Part shown: positions 8,177 through 22,745 of the stretch, piece after piece
Numbering within the stretch: the first letter of the stretch is position 1
Layout of the letters: each line of letters starts with the position of its first letter
DNA from: Candidatus Poribacteria bacterium
GTDB taxonomy: Bacteria; Poribacteria; WGA-4E; WGA-3G
DNA length: 64,000 nucleotides
Assembly (NCBI GenBank): GCA_965197475.1
Contig: CBDANF010000003.1
Coordinates: forward strand, 2,679,223 to 2,743,222
Direction: 5' to 3'
Translations under genes and position numbers: made by a program
Notes under the pieces: model-generated
Database searches by the model: none
The model's input: only the letters and a program-made list of their open reading frames with translations
What the model was told of the DNA's origin: nothing

Positions 8177-11100
8177 TCACTTACGCTTTACCCAACCTAC
8201 GAACTCACTTGCTTTCGTCTCTGGAAGCGCATAGACTCCCCGCCGCACCCGGACGATCTCGCCTTCATCTAAAAGTTGTTTGAGCTGATTTCCTATCGCC
8301 TGAGGACTACTATCAATCGCTGCGACGAGTGATGATGTTGTTTTCTCTCGACCAGAGGCAAGAAGAAAGAGGATCTGCTCTCGGAAAGTAACGCGAGGAA
8401 TGTTACCACCCCGCAGCTCCTGCAACACACGGTTCGCTTGCCTTGAGGAGCATCCTAACACACGTTCCACTTCTTCCCTGCTGGATTCAGCAGTTAGGTT
8501 AGCCCGTTCCGCTTCAAAACGTTCACGTGTGCGGACGGTTTCCTCAAGTTTATGTAACCCACCAGCGATCTCAAAGTCTTCCCAGTCAAAAAGAAGTGTT
8601 TCCGGTCTATCAGTGATGTCCGGCAGTTCAATGTTGTTGAGCAGCATTACCGTTTTACCTTTCCTACGGTTCAGTCCAAAGTATCCGACAATCTGTGTGA
8701 GTAACCCCGCGATATTTTGATCATATACCCTTTGTATGCGTTCATCTATAAAGTAATCAGTCCACATTTCTTGAGACAACATTTCTCTTTCATAATTAAG
8801 CGGTTTTTCGTCGTTTCCAAACAACATTTGCGCGTGGTGGCAGAGTGTGTCTTGCGGCCAAAATGGCGTGCCGACTATCCATAAGACCTGGACAGCTTCA
8901 ATATGTGTCTCTATCTTGTGCAACTTTTTATAATCCGCTACAAAACAGACGTTCTGCTTTGCTGTCAGGTCCGCTAACGTATCAATAATTGGTGTATCTG
9001 TGGCAATCGCGTGTTTTATGCTCGGGTCTCTATCAATTTCTGCGCGGATACCTAAAAAGTAACGTTCTCCTAATTTAGACAACTCGGTAACGTCCGAGTT
9101 GAAATCATAGTTTAGAATTTCATGTAGCGATTTGCTATTTGTGCGGATCTGAAAAACGTTGTTACCTGGCACCCATGCTGTCGGTTCAACACGAATAACA
9201 TCCATTTCTTCATCCGGGAACACTTTGCGAAGCTGCTGATCGGAGAGGTATGTTGATATTAATAAGAGACGTTTGACGTTTGGATGCAGCTTGGGTGGTA
9301 TCCAAAACTTCAGATATTTATCGTCCCACTGCATCGGAGCATCAGCATCCCGCAGATAATGCGCAAAGAAACGCTGCAACTGATGCCAATACGTCCAATT
9401 TGGATCACGACAGACGGTGGGAAAAGAATCTATTTTCTCTACGGTTTGGAGATCCAGGATTCCTAATGCGGCGGCTTCTGCCATCTGCATCGGGATACAG
9501 ATATCCTCGTTAGGAGGTAAAGGTCGCGATTCGGAGATCGCTCCTACAGTAGGAGGTAAAGGTCGCGATTTGGAGATCGCTCGGACAGCTTCCCGACTGT
9601 GGAGTGGTAAAATGGGCAGCTCCATTGCGCGCAGTCTATCTTCAGCATTCGCGTCCAAAGGGATGTGTGCCGTTGCGCCGCCGTGAAAGTCAATTGCGTA
9701 ACGTGCTAATTCTGTTCCTGTTTTGGTGTCAACAATCCCGCGCGCCACAACTTTGCCCTGTACATTAATGTAACACATCTGTTGAATTATCTCAGCTGCG
9801 TGTTGTTGGAACGCTTCGACTACAGCGCGAACTGGTCCGACCGGATTACTATATGGGTTGCTTTGTGTTTCAATCGCATTCATTAAAGCTACGGCAAAGT
9901 TGCCCAAAACATTTCCCCGCCAGTTGACGACCCATTCCTCCACGACTTTTCTTGATAATCTATATTCGGGAAACAGGTAACTTATTGTTGTTATACGTTC
10001 ATCAATGATACAGATATGTTCCGGTTCATCAGTGGAACCCAATATCTGTTGTAACAGGTATGTGTATTGTGGATCCAGAAACAGTTTCCAGATTGACAAT
10101 ATTTGTGCGTTTGTGCGTTGCAATGCAAGCGGTTGTGATAGATACCCGCGTTCTTGGCATGCTGTCCAAACGGGACACTGTGGACAGATACTTTCACTTG
10201 CATTGCCACCCTTTTCCTCAAACGCACTGAACCGCTCAGGATCCTCACACACATTGCCGTGTTGGAAGGGATTTGTCATGCGGACATCTACCGGTATATC
10301 TTTCACCTGCTCCCACTGGTGAAAGATATACCGCCTGCGGAAAAAAGAGGACAGTTTTTTTGATCGGTATCGTTGTTCTGTTGCTTCTGAGATATATGAG
10401 TCGGGTATATTTAGGCTGGTTGCATGGTTGTTCAAAAGATAGTCTTCTGTTTCGGTATTCGTTAATATATTTGCTTCGGTAGCCGTGAGTGCGAGAACAC
10501 GTGTCCCGCGCTTCAAGATACGTTGTAGCTGCGCTGAATGCTGTTGTAGTGTTTTATGGACCTTTGGTGGTGTCTGCTGCTTTTGAAGTTTCGGCGGCAA
10601 ACGTTTTATTGCCAATGGACTTAAGTGTCCCTCCCGAATGACGAGTATTTTTTCGTTGATAGGTGTTGGCATCGAAATGCCGGTGTCATCCCATATAGCT
10701 GTTATTGGCACAGCATATATTGGAAACTCGGTATTTGGTGTAGCCGCGCGCACCCATACAATGTCCTGGTCCTCCCATAGCGACACGTACACATCGTTGT
10801 GCGTCCAGTAGTGAAAACCGTTTGCTTCTCGTTCATAAGAAAAACCACGTTTCAAAAACGCTTCTTTCGCAAGATCAAGATTTTCTGAACCAAGGGATGG
10901 TAGGGCAGCGGTATCAGTTTTTAGTGCGTCTTTTAGGAATTTTTCTTGAGGTGATTCAGGTGCGTGAAGTGCAGCACGGAGGCTATTAATAGGTGCAAAA
11001 ATCACCTCTTTGGCGATGATAGGTGGCACTAACAGATTACCAAGCAGAATCTCATACCGCATATCCCAGCGGCTGTAACCCTCGTTCCCACGTAATTCCA

Positions 11101-11689
11101 AGTAAATGTCCCGGTGGTTCGGGTTTTCTGGCGTTGGCTTGTGCTTATAGATGAAAAATTTTGCTTCATCGGTGTTCGGATGCAGGTAATCTTGGATTCG
11201 GCAAGTGAACCGAAGTCCGCCGGATTTTGTTATCGTCAACAATGGGGCGGCAGTCGTGTTAATGAGTGCTTCAATACAAGTAGAAACAGCTTCTGGTTCG
11301 GCACAAATCGCGTCATATTTAAATTCAAAGTCGTGCCATCGCGCACTATCACGTTGGGAGGGGATGCCGGTATATATCTGAATTCCCCATGAGGCATACC
11401 ACTGTTTCATTCGCCAATCTTCAGCACTTTGCCGCTTCAAGAACCTATCACCACCAAAATCTCGTGGACCTTGATCGTTTTCAGGCGCATGGCCTATCGG
11501 CATAAAGGAGATATCTGCATTCTCAAGTTCATCAAGTGTCAACGGATTGCTGCGTACACAATGCACCTTAATGCAATACCGAAAACGTTTGTATAATGCT
11601 GTTGTTACCACTGTTCTGCGTTGCCGAAGTGATTCTCTTTCTGCATGCCGTTGGTGACAACGTTCAAAAATATCTTCTAAAACTTTCAT
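8177..11689 (-). CDS. Large orphan protein: AEP/PrimPol-like N-terminal domain, Cys-cluster, C-terminal winged-helix DNA-binding domain
   Basis: This is an uninterrupted 1170-aa ORF. The N-terminal ~240 aa follow the primase-polymerase motif order (WGIQIYTG ... WHDFEF ... TITKSGGLRFTCR ... IYLELRGNEGYSRWD). A Cys cluster sits mid-protein (CEDP...CPQCPVWTAC). The C-terminus LVAAIDSSPQAIGNQLKQLLDEGEIVRVRRGVYALP looks like MarR-type wHTH. The last residues (EFVGWVKRK) run into a REP family 2 copy. Function is not established. Confidence 0.5.
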   Translation of the reverse strand: MKVLEDIFERCHQRHAERESLRQRRTVVTTALYKRFRYCIKVHCVRSNPLTLDELENADISFMPIGHAPENDQGPRDFGGDRFLKRQSAEDWRMKQWYASWGIQIYTGIPSQRDSARWHDFEFKYDAICAEPEAVSTCIEALINTTAAPLLTITKSGGLRFTCRIQDYLHPNTDEAKFFIYKHKPTPENPNHRDIYLELRGNEGYSRWDMRYEILLGNLLVPPIIAKEVIFAPINSLRAALHAPESPQEKFLKDALKTDTAALPSLGSENLDLAKEAFLKRGFSYEREANGFHYWTHNDVYVSLWEDQDIVWVRAATPNTEFPIYAVPITAIWDDTGISMPTPINEKILVIREGHLSPLAIKRLPPKLQKQQTPPKVHKTLQQHSAQLQRILKRGTRVLALTATEANILTNTETEDYLLNNHATSLNIPDSYISEATEQRYRSKKLSSFFRRRYIFHQWEQVKDIPVDVRMTNPFQHGNVCEDPERFSAFEEKGGNASESICPQCPVWTACQERGYLSQPLALQRTNAQILSIWKLFLDPQYTYLLQQILGSTDEPEHICIIDERITTISYLFPEYRLSRKVVEEWVVNWRGNVLGNFAVALMNAIETQSNPYSNPVGPVRAVVEAFQQHAAEIIQQMCYINVQGKVVARGIVDTKTGTELARYAIDFHGGATAHIPLDANAEDRLRAMELPILPLHSREAVRAISKSRPLPPTVGAISESRPLPPNEDICIPMQMAEAAALGILDLQTVEKIDSFPTVCRDPNWTYWHQLQRFFAHYLRDADAPMQWDDKYLKFWIPPKLHPNVKRLLLISTYLSDQQLRKVFPDEEMDVIRVEPTAWVPGNNVFQIRTNSKSLHEILNYDFNSDVTELSKLGERYFLGIRAEIDRDPSIKHAIATDTPIIDTLADLTAKQNVCFVADYKKLHKIETHIEAVQVLWIVGTPFWPQDTLCHHAQMLFGNDEKPLNYEREMLSQEMWTDYFIDERIQRVYDQNIAGLLTQIVGYFGLNRRKGKTVMLLNNIELPDITDRPETLLFDWEDFEIAGGLHKLEETVRTRERFEAERANLTAESSREEVERVLGCSSRQANRVLQELRGGNIPRVTFREQILFLLASGREKTTSSLVAAIDSSPQAIGNQLKQLLDEGEIVRVRRGVYALPETKASEFVGWVKRK
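9511..9588. repeat. In-frame 39-bp tandem duplication (x2) inside the 1170-aa gene
   Basis: taggaggtaaaggtcgcgattcggagatcgctcctacag is followed by a near-identical copy. This encodes the protein repeat ISKSRPLPPTVG / ISESRPLPPNED. The unit ends in the ...ctcctacag motif seen in intergenic REP elements. Confidence 0.8.
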
Positions 11690-11766: not shown

Positions 11767-13163
11767 ACTTTCTTGTATAGGACGGACGCATTTTCTCTTA
11801 AAGTCCCCCTGCATAAGGGGGACTTAGGGGGTTAAAAACACGGAAATAACGATTTTGAACTGCGGGATGGACGCATAAGTGGTAGAATCCTTGATGGCAT
11901 CTGCCAGTTTAACCCCCTAACCCCCTTATCAAGGGGGAATGCGTCCGTCCTTTTAACCCCCCTAACCCCCCTTATCAAGGGGGAATGCGTCCGTCCTGTT
12001 GTACTACCTTACTTTCTTGTATAGGACGGACGCATTTTCTCTTAAAATCCCCCTGATAAGGGGGACTTAGGGGGTTAAAAACACGGAAATAACGATTTTG
12101 AACTGCGGGATGGACGCATAAGTGGTAGAATCCTTGATGGCATCTGCCAGTTTAACCCCCCTAACCCCCCTTATCAAGGGGGAATGCGTCCGTCCTTTTA
12201 ACCCCCCTAACCCCCCTTATCAAGGGGGAATGCGTCCGTCCTTTTAACCCCCCTAACCCCCCTTATCAAGGGGGAATGCGTCCGTCCTGTTGTACTACCT
12301 TACTTTCTTGTATAGGACGGACGCATTTTCTCTTAAAATCCCCCTGATAAGGGGGACTTAGGGGGTTAAAAACACGGAAATAACGATTTTGAACTGCGAG
12401 ATGGACGCATAAGTGGTAGAATCCTTGATGGCATCTGCCAGTCTAACCCCCCTAACCCCCCTTATCAAGGGGGAATGCGTCCGTCCTTTTAACCCCCCTA
12501 ACCCCCCTTATCAAGGGGGAATGCGTCCGTCCTTTTAACCCCCCTAACCCCCTATCAAGGGGGAATGCGTCCGTCCTTTTAACCCCCCTTATCAAGGGGG
12601 AATGCGTCCGTCCTGTTGTACTACCTTACTTTCTTGTACAGGACGGACGCATTTTCTCTTAAAATCCCCCTGATAAGGGGGACTTAGGGGGTTAAAAACA
12701 CGGCAATAACGACTTTGAACTGCGAGATGGACGCATAAGTGGTAGAATCCTTGATGGCATCTGCCAGTCTAACCCCCCTAACCCCCCTTATCAAGGGGGA
12801 ATGCGTCCGTCCTTTTAACCCCCCTAACCCCCCTTATCAAGGGGGAATGCGTCCGTCCTGTTGTACTACCTTACTTTCTTGTATAGGACGGACGCATTTT
12901 CTCTTAAAATCCCCCTGATAAGGGGGACTTAGGGGGTTAAAAACACGGAAATAACGATTTTGAACTGCGAGATGGACGCATAAGTGGTAGAATCCTTGAT
13001 GGCATCTGCCAGTCTAACCCCCCTAACCCCCCTTATCAAGGGGGAATGCGTCCGTCCTTTTAACCCCCCTAACCCCCCTTATCAAGGGGGAATGCGTCCG
13101 TCCTTTTAACCCCCCTAACCCCCCTTATCAAGGGGGAATGCGTCCGTCCTGTTGTACTACCTT
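11767..13163. repeat. Nested tandem repeat array: 5 macro-units (244-326 bp), each with 2-4 copies of a ~46-bp hairpin sub-repeat (14 in total)
   Basis: Macro-units start at 11767, 12011, 12302, 12628 and 12873. Each has a left arm ggacggacgcatt..ccccctgataaggggg..agggggttaaaa and a ~73-bp near-invariant core. It then carries n copies of ttaacccccctaaccccccttatcaagggggaatgcgtccgtcct (n = 2,3,4,2,3) and a linker gttgtactaccttactttcttgtata. There are no unique spacers. Confidence 0.95.
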
Positions 13164-13582
13164 TAAATTGACACCTATAGGCAAAGCGTAAGCGAAACCC
13201 GTGAAATGCACGTGTGGCATTCCGCCCGTATGGTATTCTGCATGATTCATCCAAATCAACGCTGAATGCGCGTTCGGTTTCCGGACCGAACCGCATTCGG
13301 TGCTAACAGGGATATTTAACCAACTTCTTACATGTTCTTGTGCGTTGATGTGGACAAAAGCTACACGCAAAATCATGCAGAATACCAAACGCGCATTCTG
13401 TCACGCGGTTGTCGGCAGAGAAACCCAAGGACTCCCCTACAATGTTAAACAAGGCGAAATGCCAAATTAACACCGATTCCCCTATAATGTGATAAATTGC
13501 TGAGTTTCCGGTTGTTCCAACTAACTTATAGACTGTTGATCGGTAAGCTTAGGCAAGTATACCTACCGTCGTCTTATATCTT

Positions 13583-13704
13583 CAGGACTTACGCATTCCC
13601 CCCTTGATAAGGGGGTTAGGGGGTTAAATAGGCAGAATTTGGTGCTTTTAACCCCCTAAATCCCCCTTATCAGTGGGACTTTTAAACACATTGCGTAAGT
13701 CCTG
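13583..13704. repeat. MITE-like palindromic element, family 1 (TIR CAGGACTTACGCA)
   Basis: It starts caggacttacgcatt and ends ttgcgtaagtcctg. The interior ccccttgataaggggg-ttaggggg-ttaaa is mirrored on the right arm. Sibling copies lie at 22625-22745 and 26085-26206. Confidence 0.8.
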
Positions 13705-13974
13705 ATCTTATAGTAAAATCTGTAATTATCTGGACACTGCTGTAGCGTCCACTTTCAGTTTGCGCAAGGACGACACAAACTAAAAGTTTGTGCTACAAAA
13801 TATGCGGTAGGAACTGTTTCCCAACTGGACCGATAACAATGTCCAAGTAATTCTAAAATCTACTATAATATATTAACACAAAACCTAATTTTTATCAAGG
13901 TTTTTACATTTATGGTGAATTAACGTGAGCTCGGTGTCCGAGATGTGAATTTTTTAATTCTTGAATTCTACTTT

Positions 13975-14063
13975 CACAGCCACGGTAGGTGCGGTTTTCA
14001 CAGCCACGGTAGGTGCGGTTTTCACAGCCACGGTAGGTGCGGTTTCCTAACCGCACCATAGGC
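13975..14063. repeat. 24-bp tandem repeat x3 ending in a REP family 4 palindrome (ggtgcggtttcctaaccgcacc)
   Basis: cacagccacggtaggtgcggtttt occurs three times, followed by ctaaccgcaccataggc. Related palindromes ggttcggtttcctaaccgaacc (about 39405-39430) and ggagcggttaggaaaccgctcc (about 39511-39532) occur elsewhere. Confidence 0.85.
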
Positions 14064-14290
14064 ATTAATTTAAAAAATGTCTGTGTTTTTATAAACATTG
14101 CTCAATGCGTATGATGATTGAAACTGTCCCATATTTAGCCCCGCCAAATGCGCTTGGCAGAATACGCGTATGGTATTCTGCATGATTTGGCGGGGTTCAA
14201 GAGACTGTTTGGGACTGTTTTCTGGACACATTCCGCACCGCTGGTGATGCTATCGTCACAAATCAGTATCTTTTTTGCATATAGCACACT

Positions 14291-19381: not shown

Positions 19382-19611
19382 CAAGTCCTCTTGATAAGGG
19401 GGATTTAGGGGGTTAAAATACCGAATTCAAGTCCTCTTGATAAGGGGGATTTAGGGGGTTAAAATACCGAATTCAAGTCCTCTTGATAAGGGGGATTTAG
19501 GGGGTTAAAATACCGAATTCAAGTCCTCTTGATAAGGGGGATTTAGGGGGTTAAAATACCGAATTCAAGTCCTCTTGATAAGGGGGATTTAGGGGGTTAA
19601 AATACCGAATT
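19382..19611. repeat. 46-bp tandem repeat x5 (family 1 core, opposite orientation to the 11.8-13.2 kb array)
   Basis: caagtcctcttgataagggggatttagggggttaaaataccgaatt is repeated head-to-tail five times without spacers. A degenerate solo copy lies at about 19268-19312. Confidence 0.95.
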
Positions 19612-19745: not shown

Positions 19746-19982
19746 ATGCTCCGTTATACAAGCAAGATACAACAAGCCCTTGCACAAGGCAAAGTTGAAG
19801 GCAAAGTTGAAGGCAAAGTTGAAGGCAAAGCTGAAGGCATTAACCAGGGGCGCGCTGAGATTTACCGCGCATGGTATGCTGATTGGGAAAAACGCAAGCA
19901 GGAGGCAGCTGAAAAGGGTATCCCCTTTAACGAACCGCCCCCATATAACCCCGATAATACCAACACTACCGAGAAAGAATAG
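19746..19982 (+). CDS. Small hypothetical protein with (KVEG)n repeat
   Basis: The ATG at 19746 is preceded by a strong RBS (taggaggagaaatt). The 78-aa product is MLRYTSKIQQALAQGKVEGKVEGKVEGKAEG..., with the internal repeat encoded by a 12-bp tandem repeat. I prefer this start to the ORF-track start at 19683. Confidence 0.4.
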   Translation: MLRYTSKIQQALAQGKVEGKVEGKVEGKAEGINQGRAEIYRAWYADWEKRKQEAAEKGIPFNEPPPYNPDNTNTTEKE

Positions 19983-20043
19983 CAAAACATGGTAATCAAT
20001 TGTCTGAATCTCGGAATTTAGGAGGCACAGTAATGTAGGTCGG

Positions 20044-22624: not shown

Positions 22625-22745
22625 CAGGATTTACGCAATGTATTCAAAAGTCCCACTGATAAGGGGGATTTAGGGGGTTAAATCACTGAAATAACGACTT
22701 TTTAACCCCCCTACCCCCTTATCAAGGGGGAATGCGTAAGTCCTG
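22625..22745. repeat. MITE-like element, family 1
   Basis: The sequence reads caggatttacgcaa ... actgataagggggatttagggggttaaa ... ttaacccccctacccccttatcaagggggaatgcgtaagtcctg. Confidence 0.8.

Follow-up and report, generated by a model that had tools for sequence, protein, structure and literature searches.

A two-level tandem array in a Poribacteria genome is probably an amplified IS701-family miniature transposable element

Results

A nested tandem array lies upstream of a 1170-aa gene

We analysed a 64,000-nt stretch (the window) of the genome of a Candidatus Poribacteria bacterium, which belongs to a phylum known chiefly through uncultivated symbionts of sponges. The window corresponds to C3:2679223-2743222 in a genome assembly of three contigs and 5.70 Mb in total, and positions without a contig prefix refer to the window. 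It contains a two-level tandem array at 11767-13163, upstream of a minus-strand open reading frame (ORF) of 1170 aa (8177-11689). The array edge lies 77-78 nt from the ATG of this ORF, in agreement with the distance of 78 bp given in the initial annotation of this DNA, and the array reaches to about -1,475. The array is built from copies of a MITE (miniature inverted-repeat transposable element), and its origin and significance are the subject of this report.

Tandem Repeats Finder detected nested periods of 46, 245, 291 and 326 bp at 11767-13163, with scores up to 1306. Cutting the array at each recurring ACTTTCTTGTA yields five macro-units, each of which is composed of a 141-142-bp head, two to four right-arm sub-repeats (37-46 bp) and a 14-bp tail, TGTTGTACTACCTT. 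The 14 sub-repeats have lengths of 42/46, 44/46/46, 44/46/44/37, 44/46 and 44/46/46 bp in units 1 to 5, respectively. The coordinates, the five macro-units and the sub-repeat counts of 2, 3, 4, 2 and 3 are those of the initial annotation, except that unit 5 measures 291 bp rather than 290 bp. The right end, AATGCGTCCGTCCT, occurs 14 times in the array and the left end, AGGACGGACGCATT, five times; unit 4 alone has a left end that begins with CAGGAC, the other four units reading TAGGAC. Of the 14 sub-repeats, 13 contain an exact CCCCCTTATCAAGGGGG hairpin, 11 an exact GGGGGGTTAGGGGGG and 13 a G5+TTAG5+ form.

The array units belong to a dispersed MITE family

Terminal inverted repeats (TIRs) of the form CAGGAC(TT/GG)ACGCA ... 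TGCGT(AA/CC)GTCCTG bound each array unit as well as 63 paired elements of the genome. Specifically, the half-site GGACNNACGCA occurs 230 times in the whole genome, 63 pairs of left and right ends are separated by less than 500 bp and mostly form elements of 117-118 bp, and BLAST defines 90 loci genome-wide. An exact 5-bp target-site duplication (TSD) is located directly outside CA...TG in 43 of the 63 paired elements, versus one of 63 in a control shifted by one base. Other TSD lengths are found in 0-8 of the 63 elements, with none for 4 bp and none for 7-9 bp. Only a quarter (25%) of the half-sites fall in predicted coding DNA, which makes up 83% of the genome. The array unit folds into a single long hairpin, with z-scores of -9.8 (DNA) and -8.8 (RNA), and no Rfam family comes near its gathering score for this unit, the best reaching 30 bits versus 73. 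The family thus has the hallmarks of a MITE: TIRs, a TSD of fixed length, small size, no coding capacity, multiple copies, a mostly intergenic location and, as described below, a parent with matching ends.

The near-invariant 73-bp core, which the initial annotation had treated as a feature of the array, is instead the interior of a ~175-bp MITE subfamily. The core together with a single right arm is present in four stand-alone copies (C3:597894, 2441287, 2563297 and 3315660) with 93-96% identity.

MITE loci are clustered genome-wide, and the array locus is one of the hot spots, with four loci within +/-10 kb, a density reached by only about 2% of random windows. MITE arms are also found in 20 of 24 sampled genomes of the genus, and two further families of the order carry them in part. 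The cyanobacterial HIP1 motif is not enriched in the genome (64 copies), and a cyanobacterial origin, considered on account of the motif, was rejected. Nowhere in the genome is the CAGGACGGACGCA variant more densely clustered than at C2:1134381-1143702, where about five tandem repeats of 1.7-1.8 kb share 88-94% identity and several of them contain GG-variant MITE copies with identical flanks.

An IS701-family element with the same ends resides in the genome

The parent element was sought by pairing MITE ends over longer distances, followed by a genome-wide profile search. Four elements of 1,090-1,092 bp have a 13-bp TIR identical to that of the MITE and exact 5-bp TSDs, and encode a single transposase frame of ~350 aa. 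The transposase scores 361.3 bits against the IS701-family profile NF049921 (cut-off 250) and 53 bits against Pfam PF01609 (DDE_Tnp_1; cut-off 23). Every copy of this insertion sequence (IS) has the TT variant of the TIR; the array has the GG variant, CAGGACGGACGCA. In transposase size and family the parent element resembles ISPlag1 of Planktothrix, an IS701-family element with a transposase gene of 1,014 bp (PMC9366434). ISAba11 is another IS701-family insertion sequence (PMC9771954).

One parent copy, C3:1971039-1972129, is intact, with a length of 1,091 bp, an uninterrupted 352-aa ORF starting from ATG and a TSD matching at four of five bases, and the MITE family may therefore still be mobilisable. 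The other copies are located at C3:74118, 2306928 and 2856427 and at C2:1074789 and 1003872. Three parent copies are 100% identical to each other and bear GTAAAAAGA in place of GTCCAAGA, a 1-nt frameshift at an A-run, and one copy has no ATG owing to a 1-nt deletion. The presence of identical frameshifted copies at three loci suggests either that a defective copy has spread recently or that the A-run is a site of recoding. The present case shows that an IS701-derived MITE family has recently been active in Poribacteria.

Junction sequences define the duplicated segment

TTGTA brackets the MITE copy in every macro-unit. All four linkers between MITEs are identical and 23 bp long, TTGTA-CTACCTT-ACTTTC-TTGTA, while the left outer flank of the array ends with GATACTTTC-TTGTA and the right outer flank begins with TTGTA-CTACCTT-TAAATT. 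The linkers and outer flanks together define the duplicated segment as ACTTTC TTGTA MITE TTGTA CTACCTT, i.e. a single insertion that was copied along with its TSD and 13 bp of flank. At the new joint between units, CTACCT(T)ACTTTC, the microhomology is at most ~1 nt, and the right arms within units are joined as GTCC-T-TTTAACC, without the terminal TG of the TIR.

Transposase-made junctions, such as IS dimers, circle junctions or products of alternative transposition, were considered and rejected: the original TSD and flank are kept at every unit junction, and the sub-repeat joints lack the terminal TG. At both types of junction the sequence is that of the host or of the element interior, and precise element ends are lacking. 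This points to replication slippage or illegitimate recombination, with later unequal exchange between homologous copies, rather than to transposase.

Over 141 nt, the heads of the units show only 0-6 differences, indicating that the amplification is recent. Units 1 and 2 have retained the nucleotide states of the stand-alone copies, and derived states are common to units 3-5; private substitutions number two in unit 1 and three in unit 4. Units 3 and 5 have identical heads, yet carry four and three arms, respectively, which suggests that arm number changes faster than point mutations accumulate. The proposal in the initial annotation that a MITE and its flank were amplified in tandem, with slippage in the sub-repeat, is thus supported by the TIRs, by the TTGTA duplication on both sides, by ~100 related elements dispersed in the genome and by the identical ends of the IS701-family parent; the family and parent evidence equally favours purely selfish DNA, which it had suggested as a possibility.

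The array is absent from relatives, and sister arrays occur in the same genome

At the closest orthologous locus (genome G006, 85% amino-acid identity), the syntenic interval measures ~105 bp and contains no MITE, versus 1,557 bp here. The array is missing from the syntenic site in all four relatives compared (G006, G022, G020 and G003). Furthermore, no array of at least three arms was found in 39 other genomes of the genus, nine of which contain sporadic doubled MITE ends.

Within the present genome, two further arrays derive from the same family. The first consists of left arms only and lies in the window (Table 1). The second is a macro-array at C3:610656-611333, in which a 190-bp unit, composed of a 5'-truncated MITE and ~85 bp of flank, is repeated 3.6 times. 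This macro-array apparently lies just past the start of a short, possibly disrupted ORF. The initial annotation had named identical arrays scattered genome-wide with no link to the neighbouring gene as an outcome that would count against its reading, and this largely corresponds to what we observe: related arrays and elements are scattered, and the link to the gene is not conserved.

Discussion

A model for the formation of the array

We propose, with a probability of roughly 80%, that the array is an amplified IS701-family MITE and a by-product of selfish DNA without a dedicated function. As the sequence shows, a ~175-bp MITE inserted at TTGTA upstream of the 1170-aa gene and generated the usual 5-bp duplication, which still brackets every copy. 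In the model, a rare illegitimate event involving ~1 nt of microhomology (CTACCT-T-ACTTTC) would then have duplicated the MITE with both TSDs and 13 bp of flank, and a comparable slip at GTCC-T-TTTAACC would have doubled the 46-bp right arm. Once adjacent identical copies were present, unequal homologous recombination or replication slippage could expand and contract both levels, probably favoured by the long hairpin or cruciform of the MITE, with five units of two to four right arms as the outcome. Judging from the sequence comparisons, the array is recent and private to this genome, sits in a MITE hot spot and is probably unstable in copy number. Any effect on the 1170-aa gene, such as upstream DNA pushed 1.4 kb away or an added structure-prone tract, would be incidental.

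Several observations weigh against this model. The recombination mechanism is read from the junction sequences. A base-exact empty site was not recovered in relatives, in which the upstream spacer has diverged between species, so that the comparison demonstrates only the absence of the array. Neither the array junction nor the predicted empty site had any match in exact-pattern scans of metagenome and genome contig collections, and no conspecific DNA was found. In addition, a family MITE lies 55-300 bp upstream of the start codon in three of the four full-length paralogues of the 1170-aa gene in this genome, against a baseline of 71 of 4,115 crude gene models (1.7%) with an upstream MITE (binomial P about 2e-5). 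This excess is not fully explained by chance and intergenic preference, and only two of the three MITE-bearing paralogue loci are MITE-dense, so that hot spots account for it only partly.

The relation of the array to the 1170-aa gene

The 1170-aa gene was termed an orphan, AEP-like gene in the initial annotation, and neither term is borne out. Three other full-length copies are located at C3:3863751-3867113, C3:3310412-3313801 and C3:2507086-2510481, making four paralogues in this genome, and many more are found across 20 of 24 sampled genomes of the genus. The protein has only sub-threshold winged-helix or AbiEi-like matches at residues 1100-1165 (Pfam, NCBIfam and PADLOC) and no relative in the PDB by sequence at E <= 1; an AEP or primase identity is unsupported by all of these searches. 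One relative contains up to ~19 matching segments of the family. In many family copies the match is broken around residues 695-725, where a single in-frame stop codon (TGA, TAA or TAG) separates the two parts, which suggests a two-ORF form, read-through or frequent decay.

It could be argued that the array has been co-opted as a cis-regulatory or contingency locus, in which it supplies or spaces promoter elements and its copy number tunes or switches the 1170-aa gene. The position at -78 from the ATG, the upstream MITEs of three of the four paralogues and a sub-repeat number that outpaces point mutation are in line with such a role, and promoter-active MITEs are documented, including BrickBuilt (PMC4596501) and others (reviewed in PMC10969869). 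Each macro-unit also contains a weak promoter-like site, TTGATA-17-TAGACT/TAAACT, facing the gene. However, these sites match at only 9 of 12 positions and lie 460-1,350 bp from the ATG, and the array, spanning -78 to about -1,475 with all promoter-like matches at least 460 bp from the ATG, is within neither the core promoter nor an ORF. Known contingency tracts are repeats of 1-8 nt within promoters or ORFs, which the units of 46-326 bp do not resemble. A conserved link between gene and MITE was looked for in other genomes and rejected: MITE-derived sequence is present upstream at none of nine and then none of 40 homologue loci (0/49), ~30 of them in MITE-rich genomes. Moreover, the three upstream MITEs of this genome belong to different subfamilies, lie at differing distances and occur in both orientations relative to the gene, indicating independent insertions. 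On this evidence, co-option is unlikely, and we infer that the association with three of the four paralogues reflects insertion into permissive, weakly constrained upstream regions.

A related proposal is that MITE insertion and amplification upstream of the 1170-aa family are not accidental in this genome, and that the MITE, or the array with its 19 putative transposase-binding ends, might act as a tunable silencer or insulator of these genes or as a decoy that titrates transposase. The excess of upstream MITEs is what invites this proposal; we consider it quite improbable. If it were true, the copy number of the 46-bp arm would be a fast-evolving regulatory dial.

Assembly artefact, origin and quadruplex explanations

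An assembler might have mis-expanded a locus that in reality holds a single MITE or another copy number, since repeats of this type are error-prone in assembly and the genome bin has a contamination of 7%. However, assemblers usually collapse and seldom expand tandem repeats, the assembly is contained in three contigs, and two more MITE arrays are resolved in it. In addition, the unit-specific substitutions, the gradient of variants from units 1-2 to units 3-5 and the degenerate 44- and 37-bp sub-repeats look like real divergence, although they do not by themselves prove the copy number. An artefact is, accordingly, very unlikely.

The initial annotation also proposed an iteron- or origin-like role, in which the 14 direct repeats would bind the adjacent winged helix-turn-helix (HTH) protein, acting as a Rep-like initiator or an autoregulator. 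Indeed, direct repeats adjoin a large gene with a C-terminal winged-helix signal. However, the 1170-aa protein matches no Rep, AEP or primase profile or PDB entry and its HTH matches are sub-threshold; the repeats are the arms of a transposon that occurs ~100 times elsewhere; the array is missing from the four syntenic sites and the 49 homologue loci; and a spacing of 46 bp does not keep the helical phase. DnaA-like boxes show no enrichment (one in 7 kb versus 2.5 expected). The sole dnaA gene is on contig C2 (C2:1171475-1172758), and the cumulative GC-skew minimum of C3 lies at ~2.80 Mb, 110 kb from the array and ~57 kb past the end of the window. Thus, the locus has no recognisable initiator gene, no co-occurrence of gene and repeats in relatives, and no enrichment of DnaA boxes or skew inflection that would mark an iteron-type origin, and we regard this role as extremely improbable. 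A chromosomal origin at the array was rejected on the location of dnaA, the distance of the skew minimum and the lack of a DnaA-box cluster. A five-box DnaA cluster is located at C3:1175942.

Finally, there is next to no chance that the array is G-quadruplex- or i-motif-forming DNA selected for itself. Paired G5-6 tracts occur 13 times on the minus strand, and there are 14 motifs of the two-tetrad (G2) type. However, motif prediction returned no canonical quadruplex, defined as four G3+ tracts with loops of 1-7 nt or of up to 12 nt, for either strand. The runs of G and C form the stems of the hairpin of the MITE itself, so that a Watson-Crick hairpin competes. The same tracts are present in every dispersed family member and hence belong to the transposon rather than to this locus.

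Comparison with known repeat systems

The closest described bacterial case to the array is BrickBuilt, a MITE of Porphyromonas gingivalis that is intergenic and multi-copy, lies 49-591 nt from genes and has an internal 23-nt minisatellite that ranges from 1 to 22.8 copies (Klein et al. 2015, PMC4596501). Both are bacterial intergenic multi-copy MITEs with a spacer-less minisatellite whose repeat number varies between loci; in the present family there are two to four right arms per array unit, five left arms at 19382-19611 and one arm in the other subfamily copies. There are also differences. The 23-nt repeat of BrickBuilt is internal and present in all copies, whereas the repeat here is the 46-bp TIR-bearing right arm and most family members are unexpanded. 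Unlike BrickBuilt, the array has a second level of amplification, that of the whole MITE with its flank. Furthermore, no autonomous parent was identified for BrickBuilt, whereas the IS701 parent of the array family resides in the same genome.

Eukaryotes are known to have satellites born from MITE or foldback elements, such as Tetris of Drosophila virilis and the pearl-type elements of bivalves. These satellites share with the array non-autonomous elements bounded by TIRs, expanding internal or terminal repeats and whole units in tandem, but reach thousands of copies, whereas the array is a single 1.4-kb bacterial locus. Plasmid iteron origins (pSC101, R6K and P1 types) contain multiple direct repeats beside the gene of a DNA-binding protein. 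The array shares with them direct repeats beside a gene with a putative DNA-binding domain; unlike them, it is accompanied by no Rep homology, gene conservation, DnaA boxes or AT-rich unwinding element, and its repeat is a genome-wide transposon arm. The array is therefore neither a member nor a functional analogue of this class.

Read as amplified MITE sequence, this eye-catching repeat is transposon debris, not an origin, operator or quadruplex, and it should not guide the reading of the 1170-aa gene. It provides a clean bacterial example of a MITE seeding a two-level minisatellite, with an arm repeat nested within an element-plus-flank repeat; the same genome also holds the intact parent IS, relatives that resemble single-copy progenitors and two sister arrays. 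If the array is as unstable as its structure suggests, it would be a convenient marker for strain typing or population studies.

Other features of the window

The features of the locus are listed in Table 1.

Table 1. Features of the array locus and its surroundings, in window coordinates
Feature	Position	Strand	Description
1170-aa gene	8177..11689	-	Genus-restricted multi-copy family; weak C-terminal winged-helix signal; not part of the MITE
Whole two-level array	11767..13163		Five tandem macro-units, each ACTTTC (6-bp left flank) + TTGTA + MITE + TTGTA + CTACCTT (7-bp right flank)
Left outermost TSD	11773..11777		TTGTA, read directly from the sequence
Macro-unit 1	11767..12010	+	244 bp; two right-arm sub-repeats; ancestral AAAGT, GCGGG and CAGTT as in stand-alone copies
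Macro-unit 2	12011..12301	+	291 bp; three sub-repeats
Macro-unit 3	12302..12627	+	326 bp; four sub-repeats, the final two degenerate (44 and 37 bp)
Macro-unit 4	12628..12872	+	245 bp; two sub-repeats; sole unit with canonical CAGGAC left end; three private substitutions
Macro-unit 5	12873..13163	+	291 bp; three sub-repeats; head identical to that of unit 3
Right outermost TSD	13152..13156		TTGTA
Stand-alone family member	13583..13704		122 bp; CAGGACTTACGCA...TGCGTAAGTCCTG; TSD ATCTT; 420 bp from the array
Arm-only array	19382..19611	+	5.0 perfect copies of the 46-bp left arm; left TIR ahead at ~19371; no right arm
Stand-alone family member	22625..22745		TIR variant AGGATTTACGCA / TGCGTAAGTCCTG

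A short dispersed repeat, CGTATGGTATTCTGCATGAT, accompanied by the palindromic motif GGTTTCCGGACCGAACCG, is found at 13222-13250, 13370-13400 (inverted) and 14160-14190. At 13972-14045, a perfect 24-bp tandem repeat of 3.1 copies, TTTCACAGCCACGGTAGGTGCGGT, ends in the palindrome GGTGCGGTTTCCTAACCGCACC, and a similar palindrome is present in the syntenic spacer of G003. Pieces of the spacer match repeatedly in the orthologous spacers of G006, G022, G020 and G003, which points to a second small repeat family in these intergenic regions. Just downstream of the arm-only array, a small ORF (19747-19983) contains an in-frame 12-bp repeat of 4.5 copies, AAGGCAAAGTTG, that encodes a KVEG-type repeat.

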